A DNA stretch of 64,000 nt. Origin: Elusimicrobiota bacterium. Lineage in GTDB: Bacteria; Elusimicrobiota; Elusimicrobia; Elusimicrobiales; UBA9959. Every line of letters starts with the position of its first letter. Positions within the stretch are counted from its first letter, which is position 1. Of the stretch, positions 26,360 to 48,730 are shown one piece after another. A program made the position numbers and the translations under genes. Below the pieces are notes generated by a model that searched no databases, was not told the origin of the DNA, and was given only the letters and a program-made list of their open reading frames with translations. Location: NCBI GenBank assembly GCA_036574205.1, contig JAINCQ010000037.1, positions 68,669 through 132,668 on the forward strand. Direction: 5' to 3'.

Positions 26360-26763
26360 ATATGAAAATACTTTCCTGTATAACAGATATAGAAGAGATA
26401 AGATATCTTAAAAAAGCGGGGGCTGATGAGGTTAATATAGATGCATATGAAGAGATTTTTGAGAGCTTAAAAGTTCTTGTTAATTGTGGAATAGATTCCA
26501 TGATAGTTTCTAATATTGGTTTTGCGTCTTTTTTAAATAAGGTATTCCCTTCTTTAAATATTCATTTGAGTTCAATAAACCCTGTTTTTAACTCTGAGGC
26601 TTTTTCTTTTTTAAGATCCAGAATAAGGTTTTCAAGGCTTATACTTCCAAACCAGCTGTCTGCTAAAGAAGCCCAAGGATTGGTAAGAACCTGCAAAAGT
26701 AAAAAAGTTGAAGCTAAAATATTTTTTCAAATTTTTGGGTTGTCTATATATAATGCATTGTGA
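26356..26763 (+). pseudogene. U32-family protein remnant (paralog of 59487-60404)
   Basis: Shares AGADE, NCGID, HLSS.NPVFNS, ILPNQLSA with the intact paralog. It has an internal deletion, a frameshift at FKF.GC and a 3' truncation. Confidence 0.8.
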
Positions 26764-27510
26764 TCTGTTAGTATCGTTTAAATATATGTCAAATATTCTT
26801 GTTATATATTCTTTTAAAAAACAAGCCTGAAGATGTTCATAAAAAAATGGATATCCACCTTTTTTAAGCATTAATTCTGATGCCTTTATAAAATAAGGTA
26901 TTGTATCTGAAACTTTAACTTTAATTTCATTTTTTGATAGCTTTGCCCTACCTATATATTGAAGAAATTGAATGATTATTAATTTCAACCCTATTTTAGA
27001 AAAGAAATTTACATATCCATCTATATATTTTTAATTAAGATCATTGACAATGAATATTGAAGATAAAGGTATCTTTGCTTCTATTATGTTGTTAACTGCC
27101 TTAATCATTGTTTTATAAGAATTTTTAAAACCTGTGAGAAACTCATATTCTTTTTCCCTGTAATCAGGAATATTTAGAGCAAGGGAATCAACCTGTATTT
27201 CGGAAACTATTTTTGTAAATTTTTCATCGGAAAAGGCAAGTCCATTTGTGAATATATGAATATAATATACTAATTTTTTTGCCAATAGCAATGTTTTGAT
27301 AAAATCTTTGTGAATAGTTGGTTCTCCGTCGACAAGAGTTAGGTAATTAAATCCATTTTTTTTGCCAGAATAAAGCGTATTTGATATTGTTTTAAAATCT
27401 ATATCTATTTGATATGATTGGCTATTTCTTCTGTCTTTTGCAAAACAGTAAACGCAGCTCCTATTGCATCTATATGTCAGATAGAGTTCAATCCTTTTAA
27501 TTTCATTCAT
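26760..27510 (-). pseudogene. HxsC-type radical SAM pseudogene
   Basis: CNRSCVYC; GGEP changed to DGEP; in-frame TAA at 27031-27033 (LN*KY) between two same-frame ORFs; C-terminal Cys domain missing. Confidence 0.75.
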
Positions 27511-27511
27511 T

Positions 27512-28171
27512 TTATTTTTCAGGGATATATATTGTAAGCATTTTTTTCTCATTTATAAATTTATGAAAACAATTAATGTTTGTTTTTATTATTTCTGTTT
27601 CAAACGATATATCTTTTATATGTGTTATATAAAATGAATATTTTTTGCCATAGGTTGAATTAAAAATTTTTTTAAAAAACTTTGAGATTTTTTTATTTGA
27701 CAAATTTTCAGCGCCAAATATAAGAGTATTAATATCAGAGTTCAGATTAAAATTTATATCTTCTGGATCTTTTGGTATATTTATTATCAATAAATCATTT
27801 TTCAAAAGGTTTAATTCTAAAAAAACAGAAAAAATTCCATCTAAGGAAGAGACAGCCGGAATAAGTAATATCTCAAATCCTTTAAGTTTTGTGAATATTT
27901 CATCTGTTACACTATTAAGAAATGCTGGGTTACCATAAGTTATAAAAGAGATATTATCATAATGCGCAAATTTTTCCTTTATTATCTCTACTATTTGTGA
28001 TGGAGTGTTTTTTCTTATATTTTCAAATTTTTTAAGACCTAGTTTGAGAGCATCTTTTTTGTTAAGTGCGTCTGAAAGAACAATATCTGAGTTTTTTATT
28101 ATATGGAGTGTTTGTAATGTAATTTCTTCTGGTTTAAGTCCATATCCGCAAATAAAAAGTTTCTTTTTCAT
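27512..28171 (-). CDS. Tetrapyrrole-methylase-family SAM-dependent methyltransferase
   Basis: LFICGYGL..EEITLQT, SDIV, ITYGNPAF, IPAVSSLD. Confidence 0.75.
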   Translation of the reverse strand: MKKKLFICGYGLKPEEITLQTLHIIKNSDIVLSDALNKKDALKLGLKKFENIRKNTPSQIVEIIKEKFAHYDNISFITYGNPAFLNSVTDEIFTKLKGFEILLIPAVSSLDGIFSVFLELNLLKNDLLIINIPKDPEDINFNLNSDINTLIFGAENLSNKKISKFFKKIFNSTYGKKYSFYITHIKDISFETEIIKTNINCFHKFINEKKMLTIYIPEK

Positions 28172-29322
28172 ATATCAGTTTTCAATTTAAAAAAATATTT
28201 TCCATTTTTAAATTCCATTTCTATTATTTTCTTTGTCACAAGCCTTGCAGCTGCATTTATTACATTGTTTCCATCAGAACAATCTTTGCATAATGGAATT
28301 TTACTTGCCATCTTAATAACAGTCTCTGTAGGAATATTGTTTTTTATTTTAAGTATTTCTATAAGGCATTTTTCATTGTCTGTCAAATACTTTGAAGAAA
28401 AATCCTTTTTAGTATCCTTCTCTTGGTTAATTGGAATAATTCCTTTAAAACCAAAAATTGAAGCATAATTTGCGTTTATACCTGAACATTTTGAGTTTAA
28501 AATACAGTTTTTGCAGACTTTACTTTTCTTTTTATTTAAATTTGAACTTTCATCAAGATTTATCGTCTTTCCATCTGGAGATGTTACAAGTGTGTTAAAT
28601 GGATTAAGCCCTATGGCACTTTGCCAGTATTTTTTTAGAAAACAAGGAGGAACGTTTAAAAATAAAATTTCATCTCCAAGTCCTTTTTTTTCAAGATACT
28701 CAACAATATCTATAAAATATCTGGAACACCTATTTAATGGAACTCCGATTTTTTTGTTTAAAAACATGTTCCCTATATATATAGGATATATGACAACGAA
28801 ATTTGAAACTCCTTTATTAAGTAAAAAATTAACTAATCTTTTAAGTTTGTTATAATTGAATTTGTTTATTAGTATATTATTGCCAAGCCTAATTTTTAAT
28901 CGATTAATATTTTCAAGCCCTTTTACCGCATCTTCCCATGCTCCCAAACGAGAAACAAGCATATTATGTATTTTAGGATTTTCTGATACAAAAGAAAATT
29001 TACAAAAAGTTAATCCACTTTCTTTAAGTTTTTTTGCATAATTAAAATCTGCCAGCCTTATACCATTTGTTTGGATCCTTATAGATTTAAATCCTATTTT
29101 TGAAGCTACTTTTATTATCTCAGGTAAATCTTCTCTTATAGTTGGTTCGCCGCCGCTTAATCCAAGTTTTGTATAACCCATTTTCTTCGCTTTATAGATT
29201 TCTTTAACTATTTGGGTAAAAGGTGCATTTTTAGATTTATCAAAATCTCCCTGTGAACAAAAAAGACATCTCGCATTGCAACTATAGGTTAATAAAATCT
29301 CATAACAAAGATTATTATTCAT
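28168..29322 (-). CDS. Radical SAM protein (HxsC-type) with C-terminal extension
   Basis: CNARCLFC, SGGEPT, QTNG, VPPCFL, CxxC-x5-C; extra ~75 aa tail containing CKDC. Confidence 0.85.
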   Translation of the reverse strand: MNNNLCYEILLTYSCNARCLFCSQGDFDKSKNAPFTQIVKEIYKAKKMGYTKLGLSGGEPTIREDLPEIIKVASKIGFKSIRIQTNGIRLADFNYAKKLKESGLTFCKFSFVSENPKIHNMLVSRLGAWEDAVKGLENINRLKIRLGNNILINKFNYNKLKRLVNFLLNKGVSNFVVIYPIYIGNMFLNKKIGVPLNRCSRYFIDIVEYLEKKGLGDEILFLNVPPCFLKKYWQSAIGLNPFNTLVTSPDGKTINLDESSNLNKKKSKVCKNCILNSKCSGINANYASIFGFKGIIPINQEKDTKKDFSSKYLTDNEKCLIEILKIKNNIPTETVIKMASKIPLCKDCSDGNNVINAAARLVTKKIIEMEFKNGKYFFKLKTDI

Positions 29323-30404
29323 ATATTATGTAGTTTTCTAAATTGGGGAAGTTTAAAAAATAAAGCTATATATTTTTTCATCGAGTTTTTAAAAGTATTT
29401 TGCATTTTCGTGGCAATTTTAAACCTTTTTTTAAGTTCACTATCTTTTATAGCTAAAATATATTTAAAATAAAGATATAAGCCTATTTTACAAAAAAGTT
29501 GCTTATCAACTAAACCTTTTTTTCTCATTTTATTAAAAAATTTCCTTCTTTTGCTTAAAATATTTCCTTTCAATATAAATTTTTTAATAGTCTTTGGATC
29601 AGATGATATTATTTTATCGCATGGATAAAAGTTTCCATCAGGCATAAGAATTAAATTTGAGCAGTAAGGAATTTTTTCTCCTTTAAGAGAATAAAGGATT
29701 TCATAAATGTTAGAGAATTTATACATTTCACCTCTTTTTATAAGTTGCGCGTAATCTCTAAAAATTCTATTGATCTGCTCTTTTAATATTTTAATATCGT
29801 TTTCTTTCCATAGTTCGCCATAATTTATATTAAATCCAAAAGAATTAAATCCAATTTTTTTTAGGTGAATTATATTTCTTGAAAGGTTTTTTATGTTTTT
29901 TCTCGTAACAACCATATTTACAGAAGAATATGGTATAAGTTCAAATTTTTTAAGATTTGAGATAGCTAACTCATAATGAGATTTTTTGAAATATTTTTTT
30001 GAAAAATCATTTATATCTTTATCTCCATCTAAGCTTACAACAAGATTTATATTTTCTTCTTTTATAAATTTTGAAAGGTTTTTGTTTAGATGAGTCCCAT
30101 TTGTAAATATGGTTATAGGAATATTTTTAATTTTTTCCCTTGCCTTTTTAATATATGAGACAAGAGCTTTTGTATCAAGTGTCGGCTCTCCGCCGAGAAA
30201 AGTTATTCTGGGATTTTTTGAAATTTTTAAAAATATAGATAATGCTTTGTCAAATTTTTTTTGAGACAGTTTTTCACTTCTTTCTTTCCAGTAATAGCAG
30301 TAGGAGCATCTTATGTTGCAGTTAAAGAAAGGATAGACGACAAGGTGTTCTATTTTACCTTCATAAGCTCTTTGTCGCCGTAATGTTTTATATATTCTTT
30401 CCAT
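29319..30404 (-). CDS. Radical SAM protein
   Basis: CNIRCSYC, FLGGEPT, FTNG, SLDG, C...PDGNFYPC. Confidence 0.85.
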   Translation of the reverse strand: MERIYKTLRRQRAYEGKIEHLVVYPFFNCNIRCSYCYYWKERSEKLSQKKFDKALSIFLKISKNPRITFLGGEPTLDTKALVSYIKKAREKIKNIPITIFTNGTHLNKNLSKFIKEENINLVVSLDGDKDINDFSKKYFKKSHYELAISNLKKFELIPYSSVNMVVTRKNIKNLSRNIIHLKKIGFNSFGFNINYGELWKENDIKILKEQINRIFRDYAQLIKRGEMYKFSNIYEILYSLKGEKIPYCSNLILMPDGNFYPCDKIISSDPKTIKKFILKGNILSKRRKFFNKMRKKGLVDKQLFCKIGLYLYFKYILAIKDSELKKRFKIATKMQNTFKNSMKKYIALFFKLPQFRKLHNI

Positions 30405-31270
30405 ATTCCTTCACATAACGAATAAAGAGCGCATCCTATGCACCTTTTCGTTTTTGTTCTTGCTATTTTTTTTCTTGACTCTACCACATCTTCATTTATA
30501 AAATCAGGCGCCCAGTGTTTTGTAAAAAAAAGTCTTGCTTCGTTTATTTCGCTAATCTGTTCAATGTAATCTCTAAAATAACAGAGAGGCACATACCTGA
30601 GTTTCCATTGGAAAAAACCAGCGTTATTTCCGATATCAAGCGCGGCTCTCATATATGGCGCGGCTTTAGAAATCCTTGGGACCATACTAAAAAAATTTTT
30701 ATGAGCGCCTCCATACTGAGGATCAACAAAAATGTATTCCACATTTTTTATTCCTAATTTTACATGAAGTTTAGCTATATCAGGCAGTTTTTTATAATTT
30801 TGCTTTACTATTGTTGTGTTTCCATTTATATTTTGAAATCCTATTTTCCTTAAGTTATATATCCCCTCAATCATTTGCTTAAAAGAGCCTTTTGACCTTG
30901 TAAGATTATCATGGAGTCTTGAATTATGTCCGTGTATTGAAAATATTATAGAAGTAAGCCCGGCTTCTATTGCCTTTTTTGCAAAAGAGATATCTGAAAA
31001 CATCCTTCCGTTTGTCGCTATAAGTATATCTTTGATTTTGAGGTTTCTGGCTGTCTTTATTATTTTCAGAAAATCTGAGCGTATTGTTGTCTCACCGCCT
31101 ATTAACTCAAGTATATCTATTTTCTCTTTTTTTGCGGCAAGATATATCTCTTTTATAATTTCTTGAGTGTTTTTTTCTTTTATTTTCCTTTTATCACTAT
31201 TTATACAAAACACACAATTATTATTACATCTATAGCCTGTAAGTATAACTATTTTCTTTTTTTTATTCAT
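30350..31270 (-). CDS. Radical SAM protein (HxsC-type)
   Basis: CNNNCVFC, GGET, TNGR, VPLCY, CIGC-x5-CEG. Confidence 0.87.
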   Translation of the reverse strand: MNKKKKIVILTGYRCNNNCVFCINSDKRKIKEKNTQEIIKEIYLAAKKEKIDILELIGGETTIRSDFLKIIKTARNLKIKDILIATNGRMFSDISFAKKAIEAGLTSIIFSIHGHNSRLHDNLTRSKGSFKQMIEGIYNLRKIGFQNINGNTTIVKQNYKKLPDIAKLHVKLGIKNVEYIFVDPQYGGAHKNFFSMVPRISKAAPYMRAALDIGNNAGFFQWKLRYVPLCYFRDYIEQISEINEARLFFTKHWAPDFINEDVVESRKKIARTKTKRCIGCALYSLCEGIWKEYIKHYGDKELMKVK

Positions 31271-32472
31271 TTTAATAAAGATACAAGATTTATATTAAAT
31301 ATTATTTCAAAAAGGCATCCTAAAAAAATACCTTCAGCAAATGGTCTTGCTTTTACAAATTTAAGCTTTATGTTCTTATCAGGGTGGTTTTCCATCCATT
31401 TTTTTAATGCATCAACCTGTTCTTCATTTAGACCATCTTTGAACATATCATCAAAAAGTCCTTTAAAAACTTCATTTGTCCTGAGTATCTCAAGTTCATT
31501 TGAGGATAGTACCATTCCAGGTTTTATATCACTAGCTGTAACATAATATGTATTATGAGTTTCTATTATTTGCTCAAATATTATTTTTCCTAAGAAAAAA
31601 ATACTTCCAAATTTAAAGGTATTTTTTATCGCAGTTAACAAGATGTCATAAATAAATTGAAGTGGATTTGAAACTACAAAAACAGCTAAAATCATAATTG
31701 CATACATCAATATCATTATATATTTCCACAGTCTTGTTCTTAAAAACTGGGAAATTTTTGGCCATAAGAAAAACATCAGGAAAAAAAATATATCGGTTCT
31801 GTGAAAAATGTTGAAAACATATCTTCCCAGAATAAGATTAAACATTTGTTTATATGCAAATATTGATAAAATGCCAAAGATAGAAAAAAGAGCTGAAGGA
31901 GAATTCCATTTTATTTTTTTTATTTTGTTAAGATAAAATTCTTTTATTTCCTTAAAAGCATTATTATCTCCAGCTTTTAAAAGTGCTATATTGTCTTTCA
32001 GATAATAAAATACAGAGAAAAATGCTGAAAATACAAATATGTTTATAAGGGTTGTTATCCATATATAGTTTGGAAATCCTTTCAGGTCATATCTTATTAG
32101 GGGAAGAAATAAAATATTAGCTATAAAAAATTTAGAATCTCCTGCTGGCCATATCTCTCCATACCATAAAACTAATGAAAATATAATAGAATAGAATATG
32201 TGAATCATATATTGCTTGTAAAAAATGAAGTTTAAGTAATTTGAGCTCTTTCCATAATATCCCACTACAGTGTTTATAAGGTTAGCAAAAATAAGTATTC
32301 CTGTTATTTTAAACGCAAGAAGTATTTTTGAATTTTTTATTTTGCCGGTCTCTCTATCTTCTTTTATAACAGAGACACCCCATAGAAGATATGCCGCAAG
32401 GGAAATATAGGAAATCAAATTAAGGATATTATTTGAGTATTGGTTTAAGTTCATAATCTCCATATAACTCAT
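31267..32472 (-). CDS. A24-family (prepilin/preflagellin peptidase-like) membrane aspartic peptidase
   Basis: Multi-TM; first Asp motif EDRETGKIKN, second WPAGDSK (GxGD-type); FlaK-like C-terminal insert (IKPGMVL) and PFA...FLG end. Confidence 0.65.
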   Translation of the reverse strand: MSYMEIMNLNQYSNNILNLISYISLAAYLLWGVSVIKEDRETGKIKNSKILLAFKITGILIFANLINTVVGYYGKSSNYLNFIFYKQYMIHIFYSIIFSLVLWYGEIWPAGDSKFFIANILFLPLIRYDLKGFPNYIWITTLINIFVFSAFFSVFYYLKDNIALLKAGDNNAFKEIKEFYLNKIKKIKWNSPSALFSIFGILSIFAYKQMFNLILGRYVFNIFHRTDIFFFLMFFLWPKISQFLRTRLWKYIMILMYAIMILAVFVVSNPLQFIYDILLTAIKNTFKFGSIFFLGKIIFEQIIETHNTYYVTASDIKPGMVLSSNELEILRTNEVFKGLFDDMFKDGLNEEQVDALKKWMENHPDKNIKLKFVKARPFAEGIFLGCLFEIIFNINLVSLLK

Positions 32473-33319
32473 AATATCTTTTCATCAGCCCCAGGCATTT
32501 TCTTTTTATCTTGCATTTATAGCACTTTGAAGTATATATTCTTTCTTCTTTTGGTAAAGTTATCCATGCGTATTTCCTTAAGTTTTCTGAAAGAACGCAA
32601 AGTGGAAAATGATATAATCTGATAAAACCATCTAAAAACATATCTTCTATTTCAGAAATTTTTTTTGCGCTATCTGACAGACTCAAAAATAATTTATTTT
32701 TATTTATTTCAGCTATACCCTCTATTTCGTAGTGTATTATAGTAATATAAAAATCACAGGCAATAAGTATGTTTTTTATAAATGTTATAGTTTGCGGAAG
32801 ATCATCTATATTTAATCTGTGTATAACAACCCTTATTTCTATGGTACCTGAAAAATATTTTGCAAGATTTACTATCCCTGAAAGAGTTTGTTTATATGAA
32901 CCTTTTACTTTAGATATCCTTTCAAAGTTTTTTTCATTACAGGTATAAAAACTTATGGCCGTTGTAAATGGATTTTTAGCAAGTGATGCAAACCTTTTTG
33001 TAAATTCTACATTAGAAAATTTTCTTCCATTTGTAAGAAGGGTTATCGGGATATCAGGGAGTTTTTCCCTCAAATAAACAAGAAATTTGAAAAAATCAGG
33101 ATGAAGAGTCGGCTCTCCACCAGTTATGTTTATATAGTTTTTTTTATTATGATTTGAAAAGTAAACTTTTTCCCCTTTTTCAATATATAGTTTTAGTTTC
33201 TTTACCTGAGTTTTGAGATCATAATTGCCACTAGGTGTTGAGGTAGAATACTCTTTGGGATTTGTGCACATTATGCATTTGTTGTTGCATTTATTCCAGA
33301 GAGATATATCAGGCATCAA
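32429..33319 (-). CDS. His-Xaa-Ser system radical SAM maturase, HxsC-like
   Basis: CNNKCIMC, ITGGEPTL, LLTNGR, IEIRVVIH, LYHFPLCVL, CYKC-x5-CLG. Confidence 0.85.
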   Translation of the reverse strand: MMPDISLWNKCNNKCIMCTNPKEYSTSTPSGNYDLKTQVKKLKLYIEKGEKVYFSNHNKKNYINITGGEPTLHPDFFKFLVYLREKLPDIPITLLTNGRKFSNVEFTKRFASLAKNPFTTAISFYTCNEKNFERISKVKGSYKQTLSGIVNLAKYFSGTIEIRVVIHRLNIDDLPQTITFIKNILIACDFYITIIHYEIEGIAEINKNKLFLSLSDSAKKISEIEDMFLDGFIRLYHFPLCVLSENLRKYAWITLPKEERIYTSKCYKCKIKRKCLGLMKRYYELYGDYELKPILK

Positions 33320-34685
33320 ACCACCTTAAAAATATTTTATAATTTTCCTTTTTTGATAGTTTTTTTATTAAGATTTTAAATATTCCTTTTTCAATCTCAC
33401 ACCAGTATTGTGATTTATATGAGCCGTATGGAGTTTTTGAGGTTTCATAATTAAATACTGGACATATCCCGCAGTATGGTTTGAAAGCGCATCTAAAACA
33501 TTTTGGCTGATTCTCAAGACAGGAAGCCATAGCGCATACCCTGGCTGGACCTGAATTTATTATCTCATAATAGCTTGAATTAAAAACATTTCCAATCCTA
33601 AATGAGAAATCTCCATATGCTCCAAGCATCCTTCCTTCATCGCATGTATATATATCACCATCATAATTGTAAGCAATCTGTCCTATAGCTCCTCCGCATG
33701 GGCTTCTTAGATCAAGATAATTCGGGTCTTCATTAAATATAATTTTTTTGAGTTTTATAGCGGCATTTCTTTCTATAAACTTTTCGCTATAATTTATTTT
33801 AATTATATAATCAAGCGATTTTTCATAAAAATCCAAAAAATCTTTTGCGTTATAGCCTATTTCACTCCATTTGTATTTAGCATATCCTATTGGAGAAAGT
33901 GGCCTTATAAATATTCCACCAATTCCTAAGTTAAGATATTCTTCTATTATAGCTTGGGGGTTTGAAAGCGAAAATTTAGTTGTTGTCATAAGCGCTTGTG
34001 GAAGAGAATCTTTTTCTCCTTTTGAACGGCTATCTACAAGTTTTTTTATTTTTTTTAGCCAGTATATAGTTTTCTGATAAGAGGATCCTCCGTTATAAGG
34101 CCTGTTTGCATTGTGGATTTTTTCTGGACCGTCAAGGGATGTGCATATTGATACATTGTTTAACAATAAAAATTTTAATTTATCATCATCCATTAAACTA
34201 AGGTTGGTTACTATACTTAGTTTGATATCCTTATCACTTTTTTTGCTTTTTATATAATCTATGGACATTTTAAAGGTTTTCCAGTTTAAAAGAGGCTCTC
34301 CTCCTTGAAATTCTATAGCAATGTTTTGTGATGGAGTATTTAAGATGAAATCTATTGTTTTTCTAGCAGTTTCCTCAGACATTTCGCTTGATGCTCCAAA
34401 ATTTTGCGTTCTACAATATTTACACAGATGATTGCATCTTAAGGTAATTACCATAATATGCAAAGATGGAGAAGAAAAGACATATGAGGTAAGGTTTTTA
34501 TATTTTTTAATTAGTTCATTTTGAATTTTAAGGTTTTCTTTTTTTTTCTTTTTTTTATTAAGTAATTTCTCAAATTCATTTTTTTTAACAATGGAACATT
34601 CCCCAAAGTCATTTGAGATAAAATAGCCATCTTCAAGTTTTTCAAAGTAAAAGCCACAAATATCTTTAAAATTTTTTACTATCAT
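33309..34685 (-). CDS. hxsB: His-Xaa-Ser system radical SAM maturase HxsB (paralog 2)
   Basis: SLHIMVITLRCNHLCKYC, IEFQGGEPL, TSLDGP, FIRPLSPIG, DLRSPCG, YTCDEGRM, SPASM cysteines. Confidence 0.85.
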   Translation of the reverse strand: MIVKNFKDICGFYFEKLEDGYFISNDFGECSIVKKNEFEKLLNKKKKKKENLKIQNELIKKYKNLTSYVFSSPSLHIMVITLRCNHLCKYCRTQNFGASSEMSEETARKTIDFILNTPSQNIAIEFQGGEPLLNWKTFKMSIDYIKSKKSDKDIKLSIVTNLSLMDDDKLKFLLLNNVSICTSLDGPEKIHNANRPYNGGSSYQKTIYWLKKIKKLVDSRSKGEKDSLPQALMTTTKFSLSNPQAIIEEYLNLGIGGIFIRPLSPIGYAKYKWSEIGYNAKDFLDFYEKSLDYIIKINYSEKFIERNAAIKLKKIIFNEDPNYLDLRSPCGGAIGQIAYNYDGDIYTCDEGRMLGAYGDFSFRIGNVFNSSYYEIINSGPARVCAMASCLENQPKCFRCAFKPYCGICPVFNYETSKTPYGSYKSQYWCEIEKGIFKILIKKLSKKENYKIFLRWFDA

Positions 34686-36953: not shown

Positions 36954-36954
36954 T

Positions 36955-37977: not shown

Positions 37978-37979
37978 AA

Positions 37980-40330: not shown

Positions 40331-42293
40331 AGCATATATATAAGTTTATCTCTCCTATTAGGTTAAAAGAATTTATTTTTTTGAAACGTTTTTTTATTAA
40401 AGCAAAATCTTCATTATTTAAGGAATCAATTATATTTATTGAATTGACCTTGCTTAGTAATTCTTTTTTAATATCGTCACCAAACCATGAAAAGACATTC
40501 CATATTACTGTAACTTTTTTAAAAAAGTTTTTTGGTATAAAGTCAGTTATTGAGAAGATAGGGATTGAAAAATCCATGCGACTTTTATCACAGTATTTGT
40601 CTGTAATATTTATCCCATTTTTAAAATCTTTTCCAAAAAAATCAAGCCATTTTATATGAAAAGAATTTTTTATGTCTATAAATTCTGATGATATTTCAAC
40701 TAAGCTGTTGAAATTATATTGTATAAAAAGCCGTTTCTTTGATATAGTTAAAAAATTTGAAATATCAAATAAGATATATCTATCTTTTATTGAGGTGCTT
40801 TTCTTTATTTCGTTGGATATGAATTTTAAGACCTCACTGTATAAAGTAAGTCTTAAAGCATAGTTTTCAGGATTTATGAGATAACCAAACTTATTTTTAG
40901 TAAGGATAGATTCAATTTTATTTTTGTCAAAGTTTACATTTTTAAGGTAGGTAGAAAATTTTTTATAGGTTGTAAGATATGGATTTTGATGTTTTATTAT
41001 AGAAGAGCATTTTAAAAGTAAAGTATGAAAAAATCTGTCCATTTCACAGAGCTTTGCTATTGGCTTTATTTCGGAAAGTATTTCCTCTGTTTTTTTTATT
41101 TCATTCGCTGTATAAGTTTTAGTTGATAAAACTTTATAGGGATATTTTTTTGAATATTTTATACTTAATTTTTTTGAGTTTATTTCAAAAAATGTGTTTT
41201 TCCATATCATAAGACGAAAAAAATCTAACTTTGCACCAGATGATAACGCATAATCTATTGTTTTTTTGAAATTTTTTAAATTATCACCCGGAAGTCCATA
41301 AATAAATGATAATGTAAAAGGATATGAGTATTCAAGCATCTTTGGAGAGTATTTAAGAAAATGATCCTTTAGTTCTTTTATATCAAATATCCTATTTGCT
41401 TGTTTTAGAGCTTTTTTTGTCAGAGTTTGAACTCCAAATCCAAAAGTTATTCTTGGATCTAATATATATTTAAGTATATCTGGATTAAACTTATTTATCT
41501 CGCTATTAAAATTAAAAAAAACATTTCTTTTAATAGTTTTTATATATTCAAATATTTTTTTTGCTTTTTGAATGTCAAGAAATATATCGCTGTCGCAAAA
41601 TTCTATGCTTTTTACTTTGGGGTTTTGTGAGAGTATAAAAGCTACTTCTAATTTTAGCCTTTTAAAGTCAAATCCCCTGTATTTTATTATCCTGTTGGTT
41701 ACAGCACAATATCCACAGTTGTATAAACATCCTCTTGAGCCTTCTATGTAAAACTCGGAGTAATTTTTTACATCAAATATTTTGTTAAGATATGGAGAAG
41801 GTATCTTATTAAGGTCTTTAATAGGAGGTCTTGGAGGATTTATTTTGTACTTTTTACCATTTCTATAGATAAGCCCTTTAATTTTTTCAAACATCAAGTC
41901 CTTTCTGATAATAGAATAAACAAGTTCAAAAAATGTCTCTTCTCCTTCACCATAGACTATAAAATCTACTGGATAAAAATTAATTTTATCATAAAAGGAA
42001 GTATTTATTGCTGGTCCTACTAAAACTATATTAACTCTTTTAATTTTCTTCTTTATTTTTTTAGAGAGATTTATAAATATCTGTGGGTCATTATAGCAAG
42101 AAAATCCTATTAAGTTGGGTTGCCCTTTATCATAAAATTTTTTATCAATAGTACTTTCAAAATCTTCTACAGATTTAATAATGACATTTATGCCTTTTTT
42201 TAAGTTTTTTAAAAGGAAAGCCTTAAGATACCCAAGCTCAAGGGGAGGATGTTCAGTTTTCTCTGCTATAAGGTATATGTTATATGAATTCAT
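40323..42293 (-). CDS. Cobalamin-binding radical SAM protein (class B methyltransferase-like)
   Basis: PPLELGYL, GFSCY, GEGEETF, PSPY, EGSRGCLYNCGYC, GVQT, IYGLPGD. Confidence 0.85.
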   Translation of the reverse strand: MNSYNIYLIAEKTEHPPLELGYLKAFLLKNLKKGINVIIKSVEDFESTIDKKFYDKGQPNLIGFSCYNDPQIFINLSKKIKKKIKRVNIVLVGPAINTSFYDKINFYPVDFIVYGEGEETFFELVYSIIRKDLMFEKIKGLIYRNGKKYKINPPRPPIKDLNKIPSPYLNKIFDVKNYSEFYIEGSRGCLYNCGYCAVTNRIIKYRGFDFKRLKLEVAFILSQNPKVKSIEFCDSDIFLDIQKAKKIFEYIKTIKRNVFFNFNSEINKFNPDILKYILDPRITFGFGVQTLTKKALKQANRIFDIKELKDHFLKYSPKMLEYSYPFTLSFIYGLPGDNLKNFKKTIDYALSSGAKLDFFRLMIWKNTFFEINSKKLSIKYSKKYPYKVLSTKTYTANEIKKTEEILSEIKPIAKLCEMDRFFHTLLLKCSSIIKHQNPYLTTYKKFSTYLKNVNFDKNKIESILTKNKFGYLINPENYALRLTLYSEVLKFISNEIKKSTSIKDRYILFDISNFLTISKKRLFIQYNFNSLVEISSEFIDIKNSFHIKWLDFFGKDFKNGINITDKYCDKSRMDFSIPIFSITDFIPKNFFKKVTVIWNVFSWFGDDIKKELLSKVNSINIIDSLNNEDFALIKKRFKKINSFNLIGEINLYICYD

Positions 42294-43392
42294 AGGTAAA
42301 AGTAGTTTTAAACTTTTGTTTTGGAATTTTTTTTATCGGGTTTATTTTCTTTATATCTATCTGATCAATATATTCTATATTAAATCCTCTACATCTTTCG
42401 TTTAGAATGCATTTCCCACAAATTCCCTTTATTTTTGCACTTCTATTTCTTAAAATAGTTTTCATATCACTTATTTTTTCCTCCGGTATAAGAACTACCT
42501 CGTCGACTTTTTGATTAGTTTCCCAGTCAGCTATTATATTTAAATATTCAGGAAGTAGACATGGAGGAAAATTTATCAAGATTCTTGTGAAAAAAGGAAA
42601 ACCGTAAGCTTCGGCTATTTTAAGCCCTCTTCGTATTTCCACTGCCAGGTCAGATATTTCACATAATAATTCCTTATTTATTCTCATAGCGCCACTTGAG
42701 TTTGCTGCTATTATGTTAAAATAATTTATTTGAAGTTTGTTATAGGTAAGATTAAAGAAATTCACAAAATCTTTATAATTAAGTTTATTTAAAACGATAG
42801 CAGTAGCAAGCTCAGCACCTAATTCCTTTATATTTTCCATTGCCTTCATCGTTTCTTTAAAAGCGCCCTTTCTTCCTACAAGAGTATCATGGATATTACT
42901 TTTTGAAGAATGAAGAGAAATATCAAAGGAGTTAAAACCTGCGTCTATGAGTCTTTTTGCGTATTTTATATCTGAAAGTCTCCTTCCATTTGTACAAAGC
43001 TTTATACATTCATAACCCAATTTCCTTGCAAACTCTGATATCTTGAATATATCTTCTCTTAGTGTCGGTTCCCCTCCTATTATAGATGCTATCCAGCATC
43101 CTTGTTTTTTACCTATATAAAGCACCTTGCATATTTTTTCAAATGATATATTTTGATTGTGGTTTAGAAGTTTGGGATCATTATAACAAAAAAGGCATCT
43201 GTTATTACATGTGGTATTAACTGTGACCTCTGCAGAATATGGTTTTAATGAGAGGTCCCATTCAATAGCTTTTATTCTTTTTTCTATTTCTGCTTTTGGG
43301 AGTTTTGGGTTAAGTCTTTTAATTAGTTTAAAGTTATTTTCAAACCTAAGTCTTTCACATACCATATATCTCTCTTTCAAATCTGACTGCAT
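42280..43392 (-). CDS. Radical SAM protein (HxsC-type)
   Basis: CNNRCLFC, IGGEPT, CTNGR, FPPCLL, CGKC-x5-CRG. Confidence 0.85.
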   Translation of the reverse strand: MQSDLKERYMVCERLRFENNFKLIKRLNPKLPKAEIEKRIKAIEWDLSLKPYSAEVTVNTTCNNRCLFCYNDPKLLNHNQNISFEKICKVLYIGKKQGCWIASIIGGEPTLREDIFKISEFARKLGYECIKLCTNGRRLSDIKYAKRLIDAGFNSFDISLHSSKSNIHDTLVGRKGAFKETMKAMENIKELGAELATAIVLNKLNYKDFVNFFNLTYNKLQINYFNIIAANSSGAMRINKELLCEISDLAVEIRRGLKIAEAYGFPFFTRILINFPPCLLPEYLNIIADWETNQKVDEVVLIPEEKISDMKTILRNRSAKIKGICGKCILNERCRGFNIEYIDQIDIKKINPIKKIPKQKFKTTFTYEFI

Positions 43393-44419
43393 TTTTTATG
43401 TAATCTCTAAAAAGAGGCTCTTTGTTTTTTTTCATTATTTTACTAAAAAAATCTTTGATTAATCTGTCTCTTATATTCAAAGCAATTCCACCATCTTTTA
43501 ACTCTTCTTTATAATAATAATTTTTGATGCAACTTTCACATTTTCGCCTGTTATATTTACATGTTTCATATTTTTTATAAAATCCATTTTTTACATCTCC
43601 TATTACTACTTTGTCTCTGTCTTTTGAGTATTTTATGAAAGAATATGGATAGAAACCAAATTTTCCGTCGGGGTATAATTCAATGTCAGAGTAAAATGGA
43701 CAAAATTCTTCTACTCTTTCTTTATCTAAATAACTAAAAAAAGATTCATGGTATATGTAATTTCTTTTTTTAATTGATTTTAATATGTATTCATTTATTT
43801 TCTTCATGTTTTTTTCAAAAATATTATATCTTTCCTCATTCCACTTTCCCGAACCACTGACACACTCTATATTTATTATTTTGAATCCAAGTAGTACTAT
43901 CTTTTTGAAATCTTCTATCATATTTTCTACAAAATCCGGAGATACGCAATATATGGCTATAATCTTATCCTTCAACCTTTTTATAGCTTTAATTATGTTT
44001 TGCTTTACAATTTTATAACTACCAGTTCCATCTAAGTATACCCTGTTTAAATTATGACTTTTCAAAGAACCTGAAAAGCTTATGGCAAGATATATATTAT
44101 TTTTTTCTATAAAATCCAGTATCTTTTTGTTTATTATAGTACCATTCGACGCGATAAATATTGCAGAGTTTTCATATCCTTTTATTTTCCTTATTGTATT
44201 GACAGATTTTTTTAAGACTTCAAAGTTTAAAAATGGTTCTCCTCCATAAAATTCTATCTTTATTTTTTTCTCTTTATATTTTTTAATTAATAAGAGGGCT
44301 TTCTTTATGTCTGAATGAGATATATTTATAGCTAAATCCTTTTCTACGTTACAGTGCAAACATCTAAGGTTGCATCTGGAAGTGACAGCAATCTTAATTT
44401 TTTTAATTTTAGATTGCAT
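43355..44419 (-). CDS. Radical SAM protein, directly downstream of the precursor
   Basis: CNLRCLHC, FYGGEPF, ASNG, CPF...PDG, CESC. Confidence 0.85.
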   Translation of the reverse strand: MQSKIKKIKIAVTSRCNLRCLHCNVEKDLAINISHSDIKKALLLIKKYKEKKIKIEFYGGEPFLNFEVLKKSVNTIRKIKGYENSAIFIASNGTIINKKILDFIEKNNIYLAISFSGSLKSHNLNRVYLDGTGSYKIVKQNIIKAIKRLKDKIIAIYCVSPDFVENMIEDFKKIVLLGFKIINIECVSGSGKWNEERYNIFEKNMKKINEYILKSIKKRNYIYHESFFSYLDKERVEEFCPFYSDIELYPDGKFGFYPYSFIKYSKDRDKVVIGDVKNGFYKKYETCKYNRRKCESCIKNYYYKEELKDGGIALNIRDRLIKDFFSKIMKKNKEPLFRDYIKNAVRFEREIYGM

Positions 44420-44428
44420 ATCATATGG

Positions 44429-44740
44429 TCAGCACCATCCTCCCCTTGAATGAGAGCCATGAGAACCGTGCGAACCATGCGAACCATGCGAACCATGCGA
44501 ACCATGCGAACCATGTGAACCATGTGAGGAGTGTGAACCATGAGAAGTGTGACTTGTATGACTTGTTCCATCAAAATAGTTTGTATGAACATATTGTGCG
44601 GATGCTTCTTGTGGAAGAGATGTTCCAATTATCCCAAGGGCTATTGCGGTTTTGACTATATCACTATCTAAAATTTTACCTTCTTCACTATTTAGATAAG
44701 TTTTTATTTGTTTTTTTATGGTCTTTTTATTATTCTTCAT
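44429..44740 (-). CDS. hxsA: His-Xaa-Ser repeat peptide (HxsA-type RiPP precursor)
   Basis: Leader followed by 12 tandem HxS triplets, then HSRGGWC; ATG 44740 follows a GGAGGGG RBS; surrounded by hxsB/C/D homologs. Confidence 0.9.
   Translation of the reverse strand: MKNNKKTIKKQIKTYLNSEEGKILDSDIVKTAIALGIIGTSLPQEASAQYVHTNYFDGTSHTSHTSHGSHSSHGSHGSHGSHGSHGSHGSHGSHGSHSRGGWC
44453..44560 (-). repeat. 12 x 9-bp coding tandem repeat (HxS codons)
   Basis: Five identical CGAACCATG units at 44471-44515, flanked by synonymous or variant units. Confidence 0.95.
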
Positions 44741-45737
44741 CTTCCCCTCCACTTAAGGTTTTCTTTTGTTTTTGAATTAATTCCTTTGCTCTTTTTATTA
44801 TCTCTTCTTCCTTCTTTTTTTCTTCTTCTCTTTTTATTTTCTCCATTAGTTTTTGATAATAATTACAATAAGTAAGAGTTAATTTGTTTAATAGTTCAGC
44901 GCAGGCAGTTTCTCCAATATTTGATATTTTACATTGTTCTTGAGTTTTTGGATTACGAAAGATATTGCAATCAAAACTCCCTGTTTCTCTATATCTTTTG
45001 GCAGCCTCAAGAAGATCTGATTTTTTATTGTCATTACATTCACTTAATGATTTATTATTGCATAGCTTATCTATTCCTAATTTCATTTTCTGGCACAAAG
45101 TAAAATAATCATTAACACCTAATGCTTTAAGTACCTCTCCTTTTTGTCTTCCGGTTTCCTCTTCAATTTTATAATAACCCAAGCAATTGTTTATATTTGT
45201 GTCTTTGCCTATTAAATATTCCTTCATCTTATAGGTATAATAACTCTCAACACACATTTTTCTCATTTCTTCTGGCAGAGTGTTACAATATGCTACATCC
45301 TTTTTTGCGATTGCAACACATGTGATGTAATCAGTTAAAAGAGTTATTATATTGTTTGTTTCTTCTTGAGAAAATGTGTATGACATCTTTTTGCTTTTTT
45401 TTGTTCCCGGTCCCCATATATTTCCATAATCTTCTATTATATTTTTTGGTGTTTTGTTACATCCTGTAACTTGTATATAAGTGGGCGTAAGAGTGGTGTT
45501 CAAAGAATTCTGTAGATAAGTAGTTGAAAGAAGGGGTAGCAAAGCATCCTGAGATGGTGGATTTTTTGTTTCTCTATCTACTTCTTTATTTGCTTCTCTC
45601 GGTATCTCCCTCCCAAACGGGATTTCCTGTTTGAGCGGTTGCGGAACAATTGGTTTCTCTTTTGGTTTTGTTAAAAATTTTATTACTATTAAAATCGCTA
45701 TTAAGACTACTGTAATAAGAACGATATATTTTCTCAT
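44730..45737 (-). CDS. Membrane-anchored Cys-rich extracytoplasmic protein
   Basis: Single N-terminal TM helix, Pro/Thr linker, many spaced Cys, charged helical tail; ATG 45737 follows GGAGG. Confidence 0.7.
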   Translation of the reverse strand: MRKYIVLITVVLIAILIVIKFLTKPKEKPIVPQPLKQEIPFGREIPREANKEVDRETKNPPSQDALLPLLSTTYLQNSLNTTLTPTYIQVTGCNKTPKNIIEDYGNIWGPGTKKSKKMSYTFSQEETNNIITLLTDYITCVAIAKKDVAYCNTLPEEMRKMCVESYYTYKMKEYLIGKDTNINNCLGYYKIEEETGRQKGEVLKALGVNDYFTLCQKMKLGIDKLCNNKSLSECNDNKKSDLLEAAKRYRETGSFDCNIFRNPKTQEQCKISNIGETACAELLNKLTLTYCNYYQKLMEKIKREEEKKKEEEIIKRAKELIQKQKKTLSGGEDEE

Positions 45738-45738
45738 C

Positions 45739-46017
45739 CTACCTCCATTTATCTTCGCCAAGTGCTGATATAAGAGCTTTTGTTACTATCAACTGAGATA
45801 TCCTGAAATTTTTTTTGGCAAGATCTATTCTGCATTGTTCGTTCAAAGCCTCATTCATTAGCTTATCAAAAATATTTTCGCAGTCATTGCCTTTTATTTC
45901 GGCTATAATAGTTTTTTTATTATCATAAAGTTTTATCTGTCCAGTATTATCTATTATATTCTTTGCTATATTTAAAGCTTCATAACTATAAACCTTCTTA
46001 TCTATTTCAAACCTCAT
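45739..46017 (-). CDS. HxsD-like protein
   Basis: IDKKVYSYEAL...LMNEALNEQCR...LIVTKAL pattern; ATGA overlap with the hxsB stop. Confidence 0.65.
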   Translation of the reverse strand: MRFEIDKKVYSYEALNIAKNIIDNTGQIKLYDNKKTIIAEIKGNDCENIFDKLMNEALNEQCRIDLAKKNFRISQLIVTKALISALGEDKWR

Positions 46018-47504
46018 ATGTTCATCTCCTCTTTTTCTCTTGCCCATCGCTCTAAAAATTTCGCTTTTTTATTATCGTTTAAGAACTCAAAAATAATATC
46101 CATTATCCCCATAAATATTTTACATCTTTCAGATGTAGCATTATTCCCCCAGATATTATTTTGGGCTTCATAATTTATGACCGGACACACGCCACAGTAA
46201 GGTTTATAAACACACCTTGAGCATTGAATCTGATTTTCAAGATTAGATGATATAGCGCAAACTTTTGTTGTAGGAGAGGATATAATTTGTTTATATGAGT
46301 TTTTATTTAGATTTCCAAGTTTAAAAAAATCATTTCCTTCCCATCCAAGCATTCTCCCTTCATCGCAGGTATATATATCTCCATTGTAATTATACGCTAA
46401 TTGTCCCAAACCTGCTCCACATGGACATCTTAAATCCACAAAACCGCTATCTTTGCTATTTATTATTTTATGGACAATCATCTGGGCGGTTTTTTCCTTT
46501 ATTTCAACGCCTTTTGCGTTAAGTTCTATTATATATAAAAGTGCTGTTTTATAGAATTTCAGAAATGATTCTGAATCATATCCTATCTTATCCCATAATT
46601 TTCTGGCAAAACCTATTGGGGAAAGCGGTCTTATAAATATAGTCTCAAGCCCATTTTTTACGTACTCATCTAATATTTCTTGGGGATATTTGAGTGATTC
46701 TCTTGAGACTGTTGTCAGAGCAGAGGGCTTAAAAATTCTGTAAGCTAAATTATGTTGTGTGTCATGTTTTTGATTGAAATATTTAATCCATTTTACTGCA
46801 ATATCGTATGAACTAGCTGCAGTGTATATTCTGTTTTTATTATGGAGTTCTTTCGGTCCGTCCAGCGATGTGCATAAAGAGACCTCATTTTCAAGCAAAA
46901 ATTCTGCTTTTTCCTCGTCCATAAGTGAAAAATTGGTTACCACAGAAAGATTTAACCTCTTGTCTTTTTTCTTTTCTATATCTCTTGAATATTTTATAGT
47001 TTTTTTCACAATCTCCCAGTTATATAGTGGCTCGCCCCCTTGAAACTCTATAGTTATTGTTGGGGAAGTTGATGAAAAAGCCATATCCACTGCTTTTTTA
47101 GCCGTAGTATAATTCATATCGGTTTTTGTGTCTTTTTCTCCAATAGCCTGGCTCTGGCAATAAACGCATTTATGGTTACACCTTAAAGTTGCCACTATTA
47201 TATGCAAAGCAGGTCCAAAAAATAGATATGAGTTTGAATTCTTCCACCTTGAAAATATATCCTCAAAATCTAAATTGTCGCTTATAAATCCTTTTGACGC
47301 AAGTTCGTTGTATATTGCTTCCCCTTTCTTGATCTTTCCGTCAACAAATTTTTTAAATTCTGACTCTTTTAGCATAACGTAATACCCAAAATCGTTTGTC
47401 ACAAGTATTTTATCTTTTATTTTTTTCCATCTTATATGAATTATATCTGATTTACTTTTTTGATTTGTTTCCGTATTTTTCTTCCCATGTTTTTTTGATT
47501 TCAT
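46014..47504 (-). CDS. hxsB: His-Xaa-Ser system radical SAM maturase HxsB
   Basis: LHIIVATLRCNHKCVYCQ, IEFQGGEPL, TSLDGP, FIRPLSPIG, DLRCPCGAG, YTCDEGRM, CxxC-x5-CxxCP. Confidence 0.9.
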   Translation of the reverse strand: MKSKKHGKKNTETNQKSKSDIIHIRWKKIKDKILVTNDFGYYVMLKESEFKKFVDGKIKKGEAIYNELASKGFISDNLDFEDIFSRWKNSNSYLFFGPALHIIVATLRCNHKCVYCQSQAIGEKDTKTDMNYTTAKKAVDMAFSSTSPTITIEFQGGEPLYNWEIVKKTIKYSRDIEKKKDKRLNLSVVTNFSLMDEEKAEFLLENEVSLCTSLDGPKELHNKNRIYTAASSYDIAVKWIKYFNQKHDTQHNLAYRIFKPSALTTVSRESLKYPQEILDEYVKNGLETIFIRPLSPIGFARKLWDKIGYDSESFLKFYKTALLYIIELNAKGVEIKEKTAQMIVHKIINSKDSGFVDLRCPCGAGLGQLAYNYNGDIYTCDEGRMLGWEGNDFFKLGNLNKNSYKQIISSPTTKVCAISSNLENQIQCSRCVYKPYCGVCPVINYEAQNNIWGNNATSERCKIFMGIMDIIFEFLNDNKKAKFLERWAREKEEMNI

Positions 47505-47898
47505 TTGATTTCTCCTCTTCCATTTCCTTTTTTAATTCTTCCTCAACCTCTTTTATCAGTTTTTCTAACTCCTTTTCTTCCTCTGTCGATAGTGTATCCG
47601 GCGAAACAGGGGTTTGAGGCGAGTATGTTATAGCTTTTCGTATAAGATATTCTCTAAGTTTTAAGCTATCATTCATTATCCTTTGTCTTAAAATCTCATC
47701 TCTTAACTCAAGTTCTATATTTTTCTTAAGTTTTTTTATATCAATCTTTGAATCAGATATTGGTTTCAACTCCGCTTTTATAAAATTCTTTTCCGTTGAA
47801 AGTAAAACATAGAATTGAGAAGTAAGTGTATAAAAAACATATCTTACTGCCTCAATTGGATATTTATTTAAATCATACTTTAGTGTTATTTTATTCAA
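47452..47898 (-). CDS. hxsD: HxsD-like protein with acidic C-terminal extension
   Basis: YPIEAV..Y...ELRDEILRQRI...LREYLIRKA; TTG start after AGGAGG; first gene before hxsB. Confidence 0.7.
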   Translation of the reverse strand: MNKITLKYDLNKYPIEAVRYVFYTLTSQFYVLLSTEKNFIKAELKPISDSKIDIKKLKKNIELELRDEILRQRIMNDSLKLREYLIRKAITYSPQTPVSPDTLSTEEEKELEKLIKEVEEELKKEMEEEKSNEIKKTWEEKYGNKSKK

Positions 47899-47908: not shown

Positions 47909-48012
47909 AATTAGGCATACCAAATCTGCAGCACACAAGCCATCCTGCTATACATTTAATCCCTCCACGATTACCAATTAGGCATACCAAATCTGCAGCA
48001 CACAAGCCATCC
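47909..48012. repeat. Exact 37-bp direct repeat, two copies, 30-bp spacer
   Basis: AATTAGGCATACCAAATCTGCAGCACACAAGCCATCC at 47909-47945 and 47976-48012. Confidence 0.95.
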
Positions 48013-48627: not shown

Positions 48628-48730
48628 AACTCCCCCTTTTTTGCAGAAGCACAATCTACCATATTTCAATATAATATTATAATATATAAAACTTATATTT
48701 TCAAGTATATGTATAAATAAGCCATATAAA

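Follow-up and report, generated by a model that had tools for sequence, protein, structure and literature searches.

The Elusimicrobiota contig JAINCQ010000037.1 carries, within the 64,000-nucleotide (nt) stretch analysed here (the window), a gene cluster organised around a single short precursor, HxsA4, which contains a run of His-Xaa-Ser (HxS) repeats. Sequence comparisons indicate that the cluster is an expanded form of the four-gene HXS system, vertically inherited and fixed in the chromosome. In our moderately confident reading it encodes an expanded Hxs maturation pathway whose product, a His-rich peptide, is exported after multiple modifications and plays a constant role in the envelope or in metal or redox handling. 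We rank this reading above an anti-phage function, which precedes the production of small molecules from multiple cores, and place tetrapyrrole synthesis last.

The cluster comprises 22 overlapping or abutting reading frames on the minus strand, running from 48669 down to 26632 (Table 1). Thirteen encode radical S-adenosylmethionine (SAM) enzymes: three HxsB-type, seven HxsC-like, two PapB-like and one B12-type. The CxxxCxxC motif is present in all 13, and each exceeds the PF04055 cut-off of 29.5 bits (43.8–105.8 bits). This upholds the original prediction, made from the DNA alone, of a tight same-strand array with 12 intact enzymes and one broken one (interrupted by a TAA at 27031–27033). A domain of 80–110 residues precedes CxxxCxxC only in the three HxsB-type enzymes of the cluster. 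The best NCBIfam match is an Hxs family in nine cases (three HxsB, four HxsC and two HxsC4); of the others, PapB is the best match for two and a B12 methyltransferase family for one, and for the broken enzyme HxsC comes a near-tied second. Against TIGR03977 (HxsC) the best score is 169 bits (32429–33319), with six others at about 55.7–114.9 bits. Because Hxs families are the best match in 9 of 13 enzymes, the additional enzymes are relatives of the Hxs maturases rather than stray enzymes from unrelated cofactor or tRNA families, the outcome that would have undone the original prediction.

Both predicted HxsD proteins are also recovered. One matches TIGR03976 at 41.1 bits (cut-off 50). The other, D2 (45739–46047), has no direct match to TIGR03976, and we count it as a second paralog because the profile of its orthologs aligns to the HxsD-like profile (96.3%). 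A complex prediction for D2 with the HxsC-like protein at 32429–33319 was uninformative (score 0.00, without controls). The PEP-utiliser (PF00391 and PF01326), Dph6-like ATPase (PF01902) and methyltransferase (PF00590) named in the original prediction all pass their Pfam cut-offs. As it also stated, there is no ABC exporter inside the cluster; the nearest ABC transporter is LolD/LolCE-like, at 50152–52056.

HxsA4 is the sole open reading frame (ORF) with at least three consecutive HxS units in a six-frame scan of all 43 contigs of the genome (1,852,120 bases, 95% complete), and the only match to NF038313 (76.6 bits in the genome search and 77.4 in the window scan). The predicted arrangement, in which a very large set of radical SAMs is dedicated to one precursor, is thereby borne out, and the genome holds no further HxS precursor that could account for the enzymes. 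Because the genome is 95% complete, a second precursor could lie on missing DNA; one genome of the same genus (G001) carries two. Among the other HxsA models, only HxsA3 gives a match at E 0.001 (32.6 bits, cut-off 65). The names HxsA4 and HxsC4 were not found in the literature searched, and the type exists as curated NCBIfam models only.

The precursor consists of a Lys-rich N terminus, a SEEGKILDSDIVKT motif, a hydrophobic segment, an ASA-Q site, 12 HxS repeats and the tail RGGWC. Its most hydrophobic 15-residue window is IVKTAIALGIIGTSL (hydropathy 1.77), and its 55-residue core contains 14 His, one Arg, one Asp and one Cys. About 30 homologues share the Lys-rich start and an F/L-x-S-E-E-G-K-M/I-L-D-S-D-I-V-K-T motif, followed by a hydrophobic A-L-G-I-I/L-G stretch, an Ala-x-Ala-Gln site and x-H-x-N-Y-F. 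From this arrangement we infer that the N-terminal 48 residues form a recognition leader combined with an export or anchor signal. The homologues have 8 to 22 repeats, mostly HGS, with close relatives differing in number, and end in one of two tail types, H-x-R-G-G-W-C or G-S-Y/G-Q-W/G-S-W. The repeat DNA has a 9-nt period (7.6 copies, 93% matches), which explains the variation in repeat length. HxS-repeat peptides with 10–25 repeats ending in GSW or GQW also occur in Myxococcota, Binatia and other metagenome-assembled genomes. These peptides have a different, acidic leader ending in LLAQHCSHGS, lie twice as tandem gene pairs, and adjoin HxsB homologues (311–404 bits with the HxsB copies of the window as queries).

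HxsA4 is present in 33 of the 36 other genomes of the family, with at least one match in each of the 13 genera, and in none of 24 genomes from two sister families. In an even sample of the phylum it occurs in 45 of 301 genomes, which belong to only three families (20/21, 3/4 and 21/27). The window is collinear with a genome of the same genus from 1.2 to 61 kb, with housekeeping flanks 57–86% identical. Because this collinearity covers the whole window, housekeeping flanks included, the cluster is not a mobile island. The collinear genome lacks a nitrogenase-like block described below, the PEP-utiliser and two ORFs at 17994–19972. Other genera order the parts differently, for example with [head protein-D-B-D2-HxsC-A24-like-HxsC4-HxsC] separate from [HxsB-CysRich-HxsA4].

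This distribution bears on whether the cluster serves defence. The original prediction held the Hxs product to be uncharacterised, a statement now outdated by work on E. coli. There, the effector of the four-gene HXS system is processed, modified by +8 Da (read as +C/−4H on one repeat), periplasmic and anti-phage; the system blocks phage DNA entry, and HxsD binds HxsC (Li et al. 2026, PMC13128918). It also places 99.7% of HXS systems in Pseudomonadota, more than 99.8% of them with four genes, and describes a patchy spread that includes 27.2% of Klebsiella genomes (Li et al., Nat Commun 2026, PMC13128918). By analogy, a periplasmic HxsA4 could hinder phage DNA entry, with the extra enzymes diversifying or hardening the effector. 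The only characterised Hxs system is indeed a defence system, its effector needs HxsB, HxsC and HxsD and is N-terminally processed and exported (PMC13128918), and the window shares this core machinery and an export-like segment in HxsA4; a repeat number of 8–22 among close relatives would be expected of a fast-evolving, surface-exposed factor. However, presence in 33 of 36 family members at a fixed chromosomal place between housekeeping genes is unlike the patchy HXS, and HxsA4 has no peptidoglycan-binding domain and nearly no basic residues besides His. PADLOC, whose library predates HXS, gives generic matches only (a viperin-model radical SAM and a B12-radical-SAM). We therefore regard a defence function as unlikely.

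The radical-SAM paralogs are old. The window and nine other loci supplied 73 HxsC-like ORFs for a tree (FastTree, SH-like support only; the second G001 locus and ORFs outside 230–460 amino acids (aa) left out; long-branch warnings for the rows of genome G011). In it each of the eight full-length HxsC-like window proteins falls in a separate orthogroup, together with members from 2 to 8 other genomes, at support 99–100. The nearest relative is in another genome in all eight cases, and identity is 47–75% between orthologues and 25–37% between paralogs inside the window. That the paralogs are old and kept points to distinct tasks. The original prediction had proposed about one enzyme per HxS repeat, and this idea fails: across 11 loci from 10 genomes (21–44 kb around hxsA4, three shortened by contig ends) the radical-SAM ORFs number 15, 16, 11, 11, 6, 13, 10, 13, 13, 8 and 5, and the repeats, in the same order, 12, 17, 11, 11, 18, 8, 16, 15, 14, 17 and 17. 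The two counts show no joint increase (Spearman rho −0.44, p 0.17; rho −0.22 for the seven loci with the full 40 kb), and a genome of the same genus carries 17 repeats where the window has 12, with no difference in enzyme set.

The methyltransferase at 27512–28171 helps to separate peptide from tetrapyrrole chemistry. Searched as a single sequence it found only itself among homologues, a weak match in the PDB (CbiF, E 0.015) and, for single members of its family, weak Cbi-type NCBIfam matches. An exhaustive search of 1.84 billion representatives returned 49 relatives at E 0.001, and a profile was built from 37 of them, excluding 12 fused, truncated or much longer forms. The top PDB matches of this profile are borosin enzymes over their full length: dbOphM (2.2e-21, 79.7 bits, positions 4–229 of 234) and OphA (about 3e-20), with further borosin matches to SonM (2.2e-17) and MroMA (3.9e-17); tetrapyrrole methylases are absent among the best 60 matches. 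Foldseek and VIA-align also rank borosin enzymes first for an AF2 model (pLDDT 73, from a four-row alignment). In VIA-align, 32 borosin entries reach Z 8.6–10.2, and CobJ, SUMT, CbiF and CysG 6.8–8.0, with an rmsd of about 7 Å. The modelled fold thus argues for peptide over tetrapyrrole chemistry. A diphthamide-like route (Dph5 plus Dph6) was considered and left as unlikely: diphthine synthases match only the N-terminal half of the profile (E 5e-12) and none appears in the 50 VIA rows.

This borosin-like family occurs in 25 of the 301 genomes of the phylum sample, 24 of which also have HxsA4; the gene lies within 16 kb of hxsA4 in four genomes and 26–98 kb away on the same contig in six. By this distribution the methyltransferase is a facultative member of the kit. 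The window also contains, 7 kb from the cluster, a truncated paralog of 148 aa (20186–20632; 41% identity across 127 residues). Another contig of the genome holds a third copy, which is full-length (C13:34044–34733). A sister family (G301:C13, G313:C20 and G284:C24) has the borosin-like domain in 4–5 neighbouring copies, in frames of 600–1177 aa.

Next to the cluster, at 22657–26359, lie nitrogenase-like (NFL) genes that the original prediction missed, together with their link to published radical-SAM suites of Elusimicrobia. The NifH part of the fused protein NflHD has a Walker A motif (GKGGIGKT) and both cluster cysteines (CAGVG and VCGGF). It scores equally on NifH and CfbC (189.7 bits, cut-offs 394 and 402) and lies under the cut-offs of NifH, CfbC, BchL and BchX. 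No NifB match was found at E 0.001 in the 95%-complete genome. By these features, rather than by tree placement, the genes fit the ‘Group VI’ NFL of Elusimicrobia, for which up to 13 adjacent radical SAMs, some of them B12-type, have been described and tetrapyrrole chemistry proposed (10.1101/765248; PMC13474568). The available parts of these two sources mention neither Hxs families nor a peptide substrate for Group VI.

NFL genes occur in 8 of the 36 family genomes, and in neither genome of the same genus; the other 28 have the cluster without them. A NifK-like protein is encoded in 22 of the 301 sampled genomes, all within the three HxsA4 families, and 21 of the 22 have HxsA4; because the genomes are related, these counts are not independent of one another. 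Since HxsA4 is nearly universal in the NFL-bearing families, co-occurrence alone says little, and the argument for a link to the peptide rests instead on close placement that recurs in changing arrangements. In 14 of 21 genomes, hxsA4 and an NFL gene share a contig and are no more than 21 kb apart; in the other seven, which are fragmented assemblies, the two are on different contigs. NflHD-NflK sits inside a co-directional radical-SAM run in G011 and heads a run ending in hxsA4 in G012; its orientation is divergent in G025 and convergent in the window. At the junction of the NFL block in the window (22657–27033), the 3′ ends of a U32-family gene and of the last radical SAM are both missing, as would be expected had an insertion or rearrangement taken place. 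The 339-aa orthologue of that radical SAM in the same genus aligns through the TAA in one frame at 56% identity, to about 26730 (tblastn), and retains the C-terminal CxxCx5C part that the window copy has lost.

If the substrate of the NFL enzymes were a tetrapyrrole, the radical-SAM suite would build, and the reductase reduce, a tetrapyrrole-type cofactor, with only the HxsB/HxsD core touching the peptide. The characterised NFL relatives DPOR, COR and CfbCD do reduce tetrapyrroles, the cluster has a B12-radical SAM and a Pfam TP_methylase label, and tetrapyrroles are what Meheust et al. (bioRxiv 10.1101/765248) propose for Group VI, as does a review of 2026 (PMC13474568). Yet the TP_methylase-fold protein is nearest to peptide N-methyltransferases in both profile and fold comparison, 9 of the 13 radical SAMs match Hxs families best, and 28 of 36 family genomes have the cluster without NFL. 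HemB, HemC and CobA/SUMT were not found in the 95%-complete genome by searches that were positive in 11 of 14 controls; because a B12-dependent radical SAM is nevertheless encoded, this suggests corrinoid scavenging. We consider a tetrapyrrole pathway very improbable. The co-location in 14 of 21 genomes, the tetrapyrrole trunk genes not found and the peptide-type methyltransferase favour a peptide substrate, and the NFL enzymes may work on HxsA4. We offer more tentatively, as possible rather than probable, the wider proposal that Group VI NFL reduce His-derived rings made by radical SAMs in HxS repeats, instead of tetrapyrroles, and that their radical-SAM suites are expanded Hxs systems. If so, they would be the first nitrogenase-family enzymes with a peptide substrate, and ATP-driven low-potential reduction would give a peptide-borne (or peptide-derived) redox or metal-binding cofactor.

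Two further enzyme types could act on the precursor. In the ESM Atlas, the 401-aa membrane protein most resembles clusters of A24 peptidases (feature scores 0.94–0.95), and its structure reaches TM 0.71 to a cluster in which 29% of members carry PF01478. Its D39 and A110-G111-D112 are invariant in seven of seven orthologues; we take these to be the A24-family motifs, two membrane aspartates with the second in a GxGD-like motif. The A24 peptidase of the original prediction is thus plausible from look-alikes and invariant residues, although Pfam matching did not confirm it. A PapB-like orthologue (at least 150 bits) accompanies 9 of 13 loci with the RGGWC tail and none of 16 loci with a Cys-free tail (best 80 bits). 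Because flanks of 10–20 kb were compared and the loci are kin, this pattern is a lead only; the single Cys of HxsA4 may be the target of the PapB-like enzymes.

A second locus 10 kb from the cluster (57.7–61.9 kb) contains the two radical SAMs and the dead hxsB of the original prediction; the radical SAMs are HxsC-like, and the hxsB is a fragment with three stops. The two radical SAMs and the U32-like pair beside them are collinear in a genome of the same genus. In other genera the orthogroups of these radical SAMs lie inside or beside the cluster and NFL genes, which indicates that the second-locus genes belong to the kit, and U32 genes recur in the clusters of relatives. A SufS-like gene at 62128–63357 has a counterpart inside the G025 cluster.

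The peptidase-like genes of the kit (A24-like and U32-like) would suit a pathway in which each His-x-Ser unit becomes a small heterocyclic cofactor or metallophore that is cut out, so that repeat number sets the yield only. Such a multi-core scheme would fit a repeat number that varies (8–22) under a fixed enzyme set, the many sequential and anciently distinct enzymes, and the addition, in some genomes, of an ATP-dependent low-potential reductase. PQQ and mycofactocin, cofactors that a radical SAM and a small partner protein make from a peptide, provide precedents. However, the conserved export-like segment and the aromatic or Cys tail suit an intact exported peptide better, characterised U32 relatives are hydroxylases rather than peptidases (NCBIfam names UbiU and TrhP), and modified E. 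coli HxsA remains a protein. These points leave a multi-core product improbable, more so than defence.

In the exported-peptide pathway that we favour, recognition of the conserved leader (SEEGK-x-LDSDIVKT) by HxsB/HxsD-type partners would take place in the cytoplasm. Besides the Hxs-type radical modification, the HxS repeats would carry further, different ones made by the old HxsC-like paralogs. Methyl groups would be added to carbon by the B12 radical SAM and to backbone nitrogen by the borosin-like enzyme, accessory enzymes would contribute ATP-dependent amidation or activation, and in precursors with the RGGWC tail a PapB-type thioether would form at the single Cys. Through its hydrophobic segment and AxA site the peptide would then reach or cross the inner membrane, and its processing would likely fall to the A24-like protease. 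The end product would be a rigidified, His-rich repeat peptide, exported and variable in length, with a constant, lineage-wide envelope function (metal/redox handling or a barrier). In the genomes that have them, NflHD/NflK would probably reduce it.

Several observations weigh against this pathway. Curated Hxs cut-offs are passed only by the precursor and 2 of the 13 radical SAMs, both HxsB copies; every HxsC-like protein lies below the HxsC (267.9) or HxsC4 (500) cut-off, and the HxsD-like protein at 47452–47898 falls just under that of TIGR03976. Two features of E. coli HxsA, its peptidoglycan-binding domain (by Pfam) and its basic residues, are missing from HxsA4. Even at E up to 1, Pfam gives no match, PF01478 included, for the 401-aa membrane protein. 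Four of the 13 RGGWC loci have no PapB-like gene in a 10-kb flank, and the Cys-tail pattern may reflect shared ancestry. Borosin-like genes are on other contigs than hxsA4 in 10 of the 24 genomes with both. The NFL genes of the window are convergent with the cluster and absent from both genomes of the same genus, so that their link to the cluster here is one of adjacency only, and their arrival coincides with the loss of the 3′ end of the last radical SAM. Finally, we infer the chemistry, function and localisation of the product from sequence.

Other cluster genes are lineage-specific or accessory. Orthologues of the 232-aa head gene lie directly upstream of hxsD in six of ten relatives' loci; the protein has no Pfam or NCBIfam match and its AF2 model reaches pLDDT 39.7. 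An exact 37-nt direct repeat (47909–47945 and 47976–48012, 67 nt apart) duplicates the 3′ end of this gene, where two overlapping frames both finish in GWLVCCRFGMPN; the orthologues finish in CCR-I/M-Q. The 343-aa Cys-rich protein sits between D2 and hxsA4 in nine of ten relatives' loci (23–31% identity), has no family match, and gave no informative look-alike in the ESM Atlas. An orthologue of the PEP-utiliser is missing from nine of ten relatives' loci, with a weak 59-bit match in one, and by this comparison the operon gained the gene recently; of the 11 loci, only that of this genome has it inserted between two conserved cluster genes. Immediately upstream of the cluster (48731–50174) lie a McsB-like and a McsA-like gene, whose scores fall far under curated cut-offs (84 against 385 bits and 57 against 210 bits).

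Table 1. Genes of the Hxs cluster, the adjoining NFL block and the second locus
Feature	Position	Strand	Evidence or remarks
Conserved 232-aa head gene	47971..48669	-	N-terminal hydrophobic helix, invariant SETLxITTYYPAPYGGY, C-terminal CCR
HxsD-like small protein, acidic/lysine-rich tail	47452..47898	-	TIGR03976 41.1 bits; orthologues in 8 relatives' loci
HxsB radical SAM/SPASM maturase, paralog 1	46014..47504	-	TIGR03978 510.3 bits, cut-off 370
Second HxsD paralog, D2	45739..46047	-	hhalign to HxsD-like profile 96.3%, E 1.5e-9, 87 columns
343-aa Cys-rich protein, N-terminal membrane helix, lineage-specific	44730..45761	-	between D2 and hxsA4
HxsA4 precursor, 107 aa	44429..44752	-	NF038313 77.4 bits, cut-off 55
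PapB-like radical SAM/SPASM	43355..44419	-	NF047865 120.7 bits (cut-off 340), PF04055
HxsC-like radical SAM	42280..43392	-	TIGR03977 114.6 bits (cut-off 267.9); own orthogroup, support 100
B12-binding radical SAM, methyltransferase type	40323..42293	-	NF033712 95.9 bits; PF02310 and PF04055
Dph6-like N-type ATP pyrophosphatase	39626..40330	-	PF01902 59.4 bits (cut-off 23.2); PDB 3rjz E 1.7e-8
PEP-utiliser/PPDK_N phosphotransferase, accessory	37980..39626	-	PF00391, PF01326
HxsC-like radical SAM	36955..37977	-	TIGR03977 98.9 bits; orthogroup support 99
HxsB-like radical SAM/SPASM, paralog 3	35580..36953	-	TIGR03978 316.5 bits, under cut-off 370
HxsC4-like radical SAM	34682..35611	-	NF038332 141.8 bits (cut-off 500); 9-row orthogroup, support 100
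HxsB radical SAM/SPASM maturase, paralog 2	33309..34685	-	TIGR03978 461.2 bits, above cut-off 370
HxsC-like radical SAM closest to canonical HxsC	32429..33319	-	TIGR03977 169 bits, positions 33-289 of 292
A24-like (GxGD-type) membrane aspartyl protease candidate, 401 aa	31267..32472	-	ESM Atlas look-alikes with PF01478
HxsC4-like radical SAM	30350..31270	-	NF038332 146.3 bits; 7-row orthogroup, support 100
PapB-like radical SAM/SPASM	29319..30404	-	NF047865 131.3 bits, cut-off 340
HxsC-like radical SAM	28168..29322	-	TIGR03977 95 bits; 11-row orthogroup, support 100
TP_methylase-fold enzyme nearest borosin peptide alpha-N-methyltransferases	27512..28171	-	PF00590; profile of 37 relatives vs PDB
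Broken HxsC-like radical SAM	26632..27552	-	in-frame TAA 27031-27033; C-terminal cluster motif lost
Truncated U32-family gene, 135 aa, overlaps end of broken radical SAM	26356..26763	+	PF01136 53.1 bits
NifD/K-like partner subunit, 428 aa (NflK)	25073..26359	+	PF00148 125.4 bits
NifH-like and NifD/K-like fusion, 823 aa (NflHD)	22657..25128	+	PF00142 204.1 bits, PF00148 36.1 bits
Two HxsC-like radical SAMs, 10 kb from cluster	57731..59483	+	TIGR03977 89.5 and 53.4 bits
U32-like pair, UbiU/TrhP-like, second without family match	59487..61195	+	PF01136 57.4, NF047963 69.4 bits
HxsB gene fragment	61504..61923	-	TIGR03978 positions 104-224; 2 TGA and 1 TAA; 85-aa ORF 37.2 bits

The cluster joins two questions, the chemistry of Hxs modification (+8 Da in E. 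coli) and the substrate of Group VI NFL, posed since 2020, and offers for both a short, soluble-looking precursor with a defined enzyme list sorted into old orthogroups. Relatives with and without NFL, PapB-like genes, methyltransferase and PEP-utiliser are natural ‘knock-outs’ from which the mass shift due to each enzyme can be predicted. The cluster also extends what was known as a four-gene mobile defence module to a large, housekeeping-like form fixed across a whole bacterial family.

Parts of the kit resemble several known systems. Two cluster enzymes match the PapB-type ranthipeptide maturases best and are found where the precursor tail holds a Cys, but they score 121–131 bits under a cut-off of 340, the substrate has a single Cys, and the thioether is predicted only. 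The 219-aa methyltransferase family matches best, over its full length and in profile and fold, the enzymes of the borosin systems (SonM with its separate precursor SonA; OphMA, MroMA). It differs in its 13–17% identity, in being embedded in a radical-SAM operon and in having no fused or borosin-type precursor next to it. With Group VI NFL the neighbouring genes share the phylum, a NifH-like protein with Walker A motif and cluster cysteines, divergent NifD/K-like partners, the lack of NifB and many adjacent radical SAMs, some B12-type; unlike the published examples, the suite of the window is Hxs-type with a precursor, and the NifH and NifD-like parts are fused. A further resemblance is to NCBIfam type 4, whose HxsA4 model the precursor passes and whose HxsC4 model two radical SAMs match over the full length, at 146 and 142 bits against 500.

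With the canonical HXS system (HxsD-HxsB-HxsC-HxsA, TIGR03976–03979) the cluster has in common an HxS-repeat substrate with an N-terminal export-type segment, two HxsB copies above cut-off, and HxsC-like and HxsD-like partners. It has 13 radical SAMs rather than two, including three HxsB paralogs, with two HxsD paralogs beside them, and its HxsC and HxsD proteins lie under their cut-offs. There are 22 genes instead of four, beginning D-B-D2-CysRich-A before the others, in place of the order D-B-C-A. The precursor is 107 aa with 12 mostly HGS repeats, compared with 214 aa, five basic repeats and a peptidoglycan-binding domain. By contrast with the patchy spread of canonical HXS, the cluster is a fixed, family-wide locus that has taken in extra classes of enzyme.

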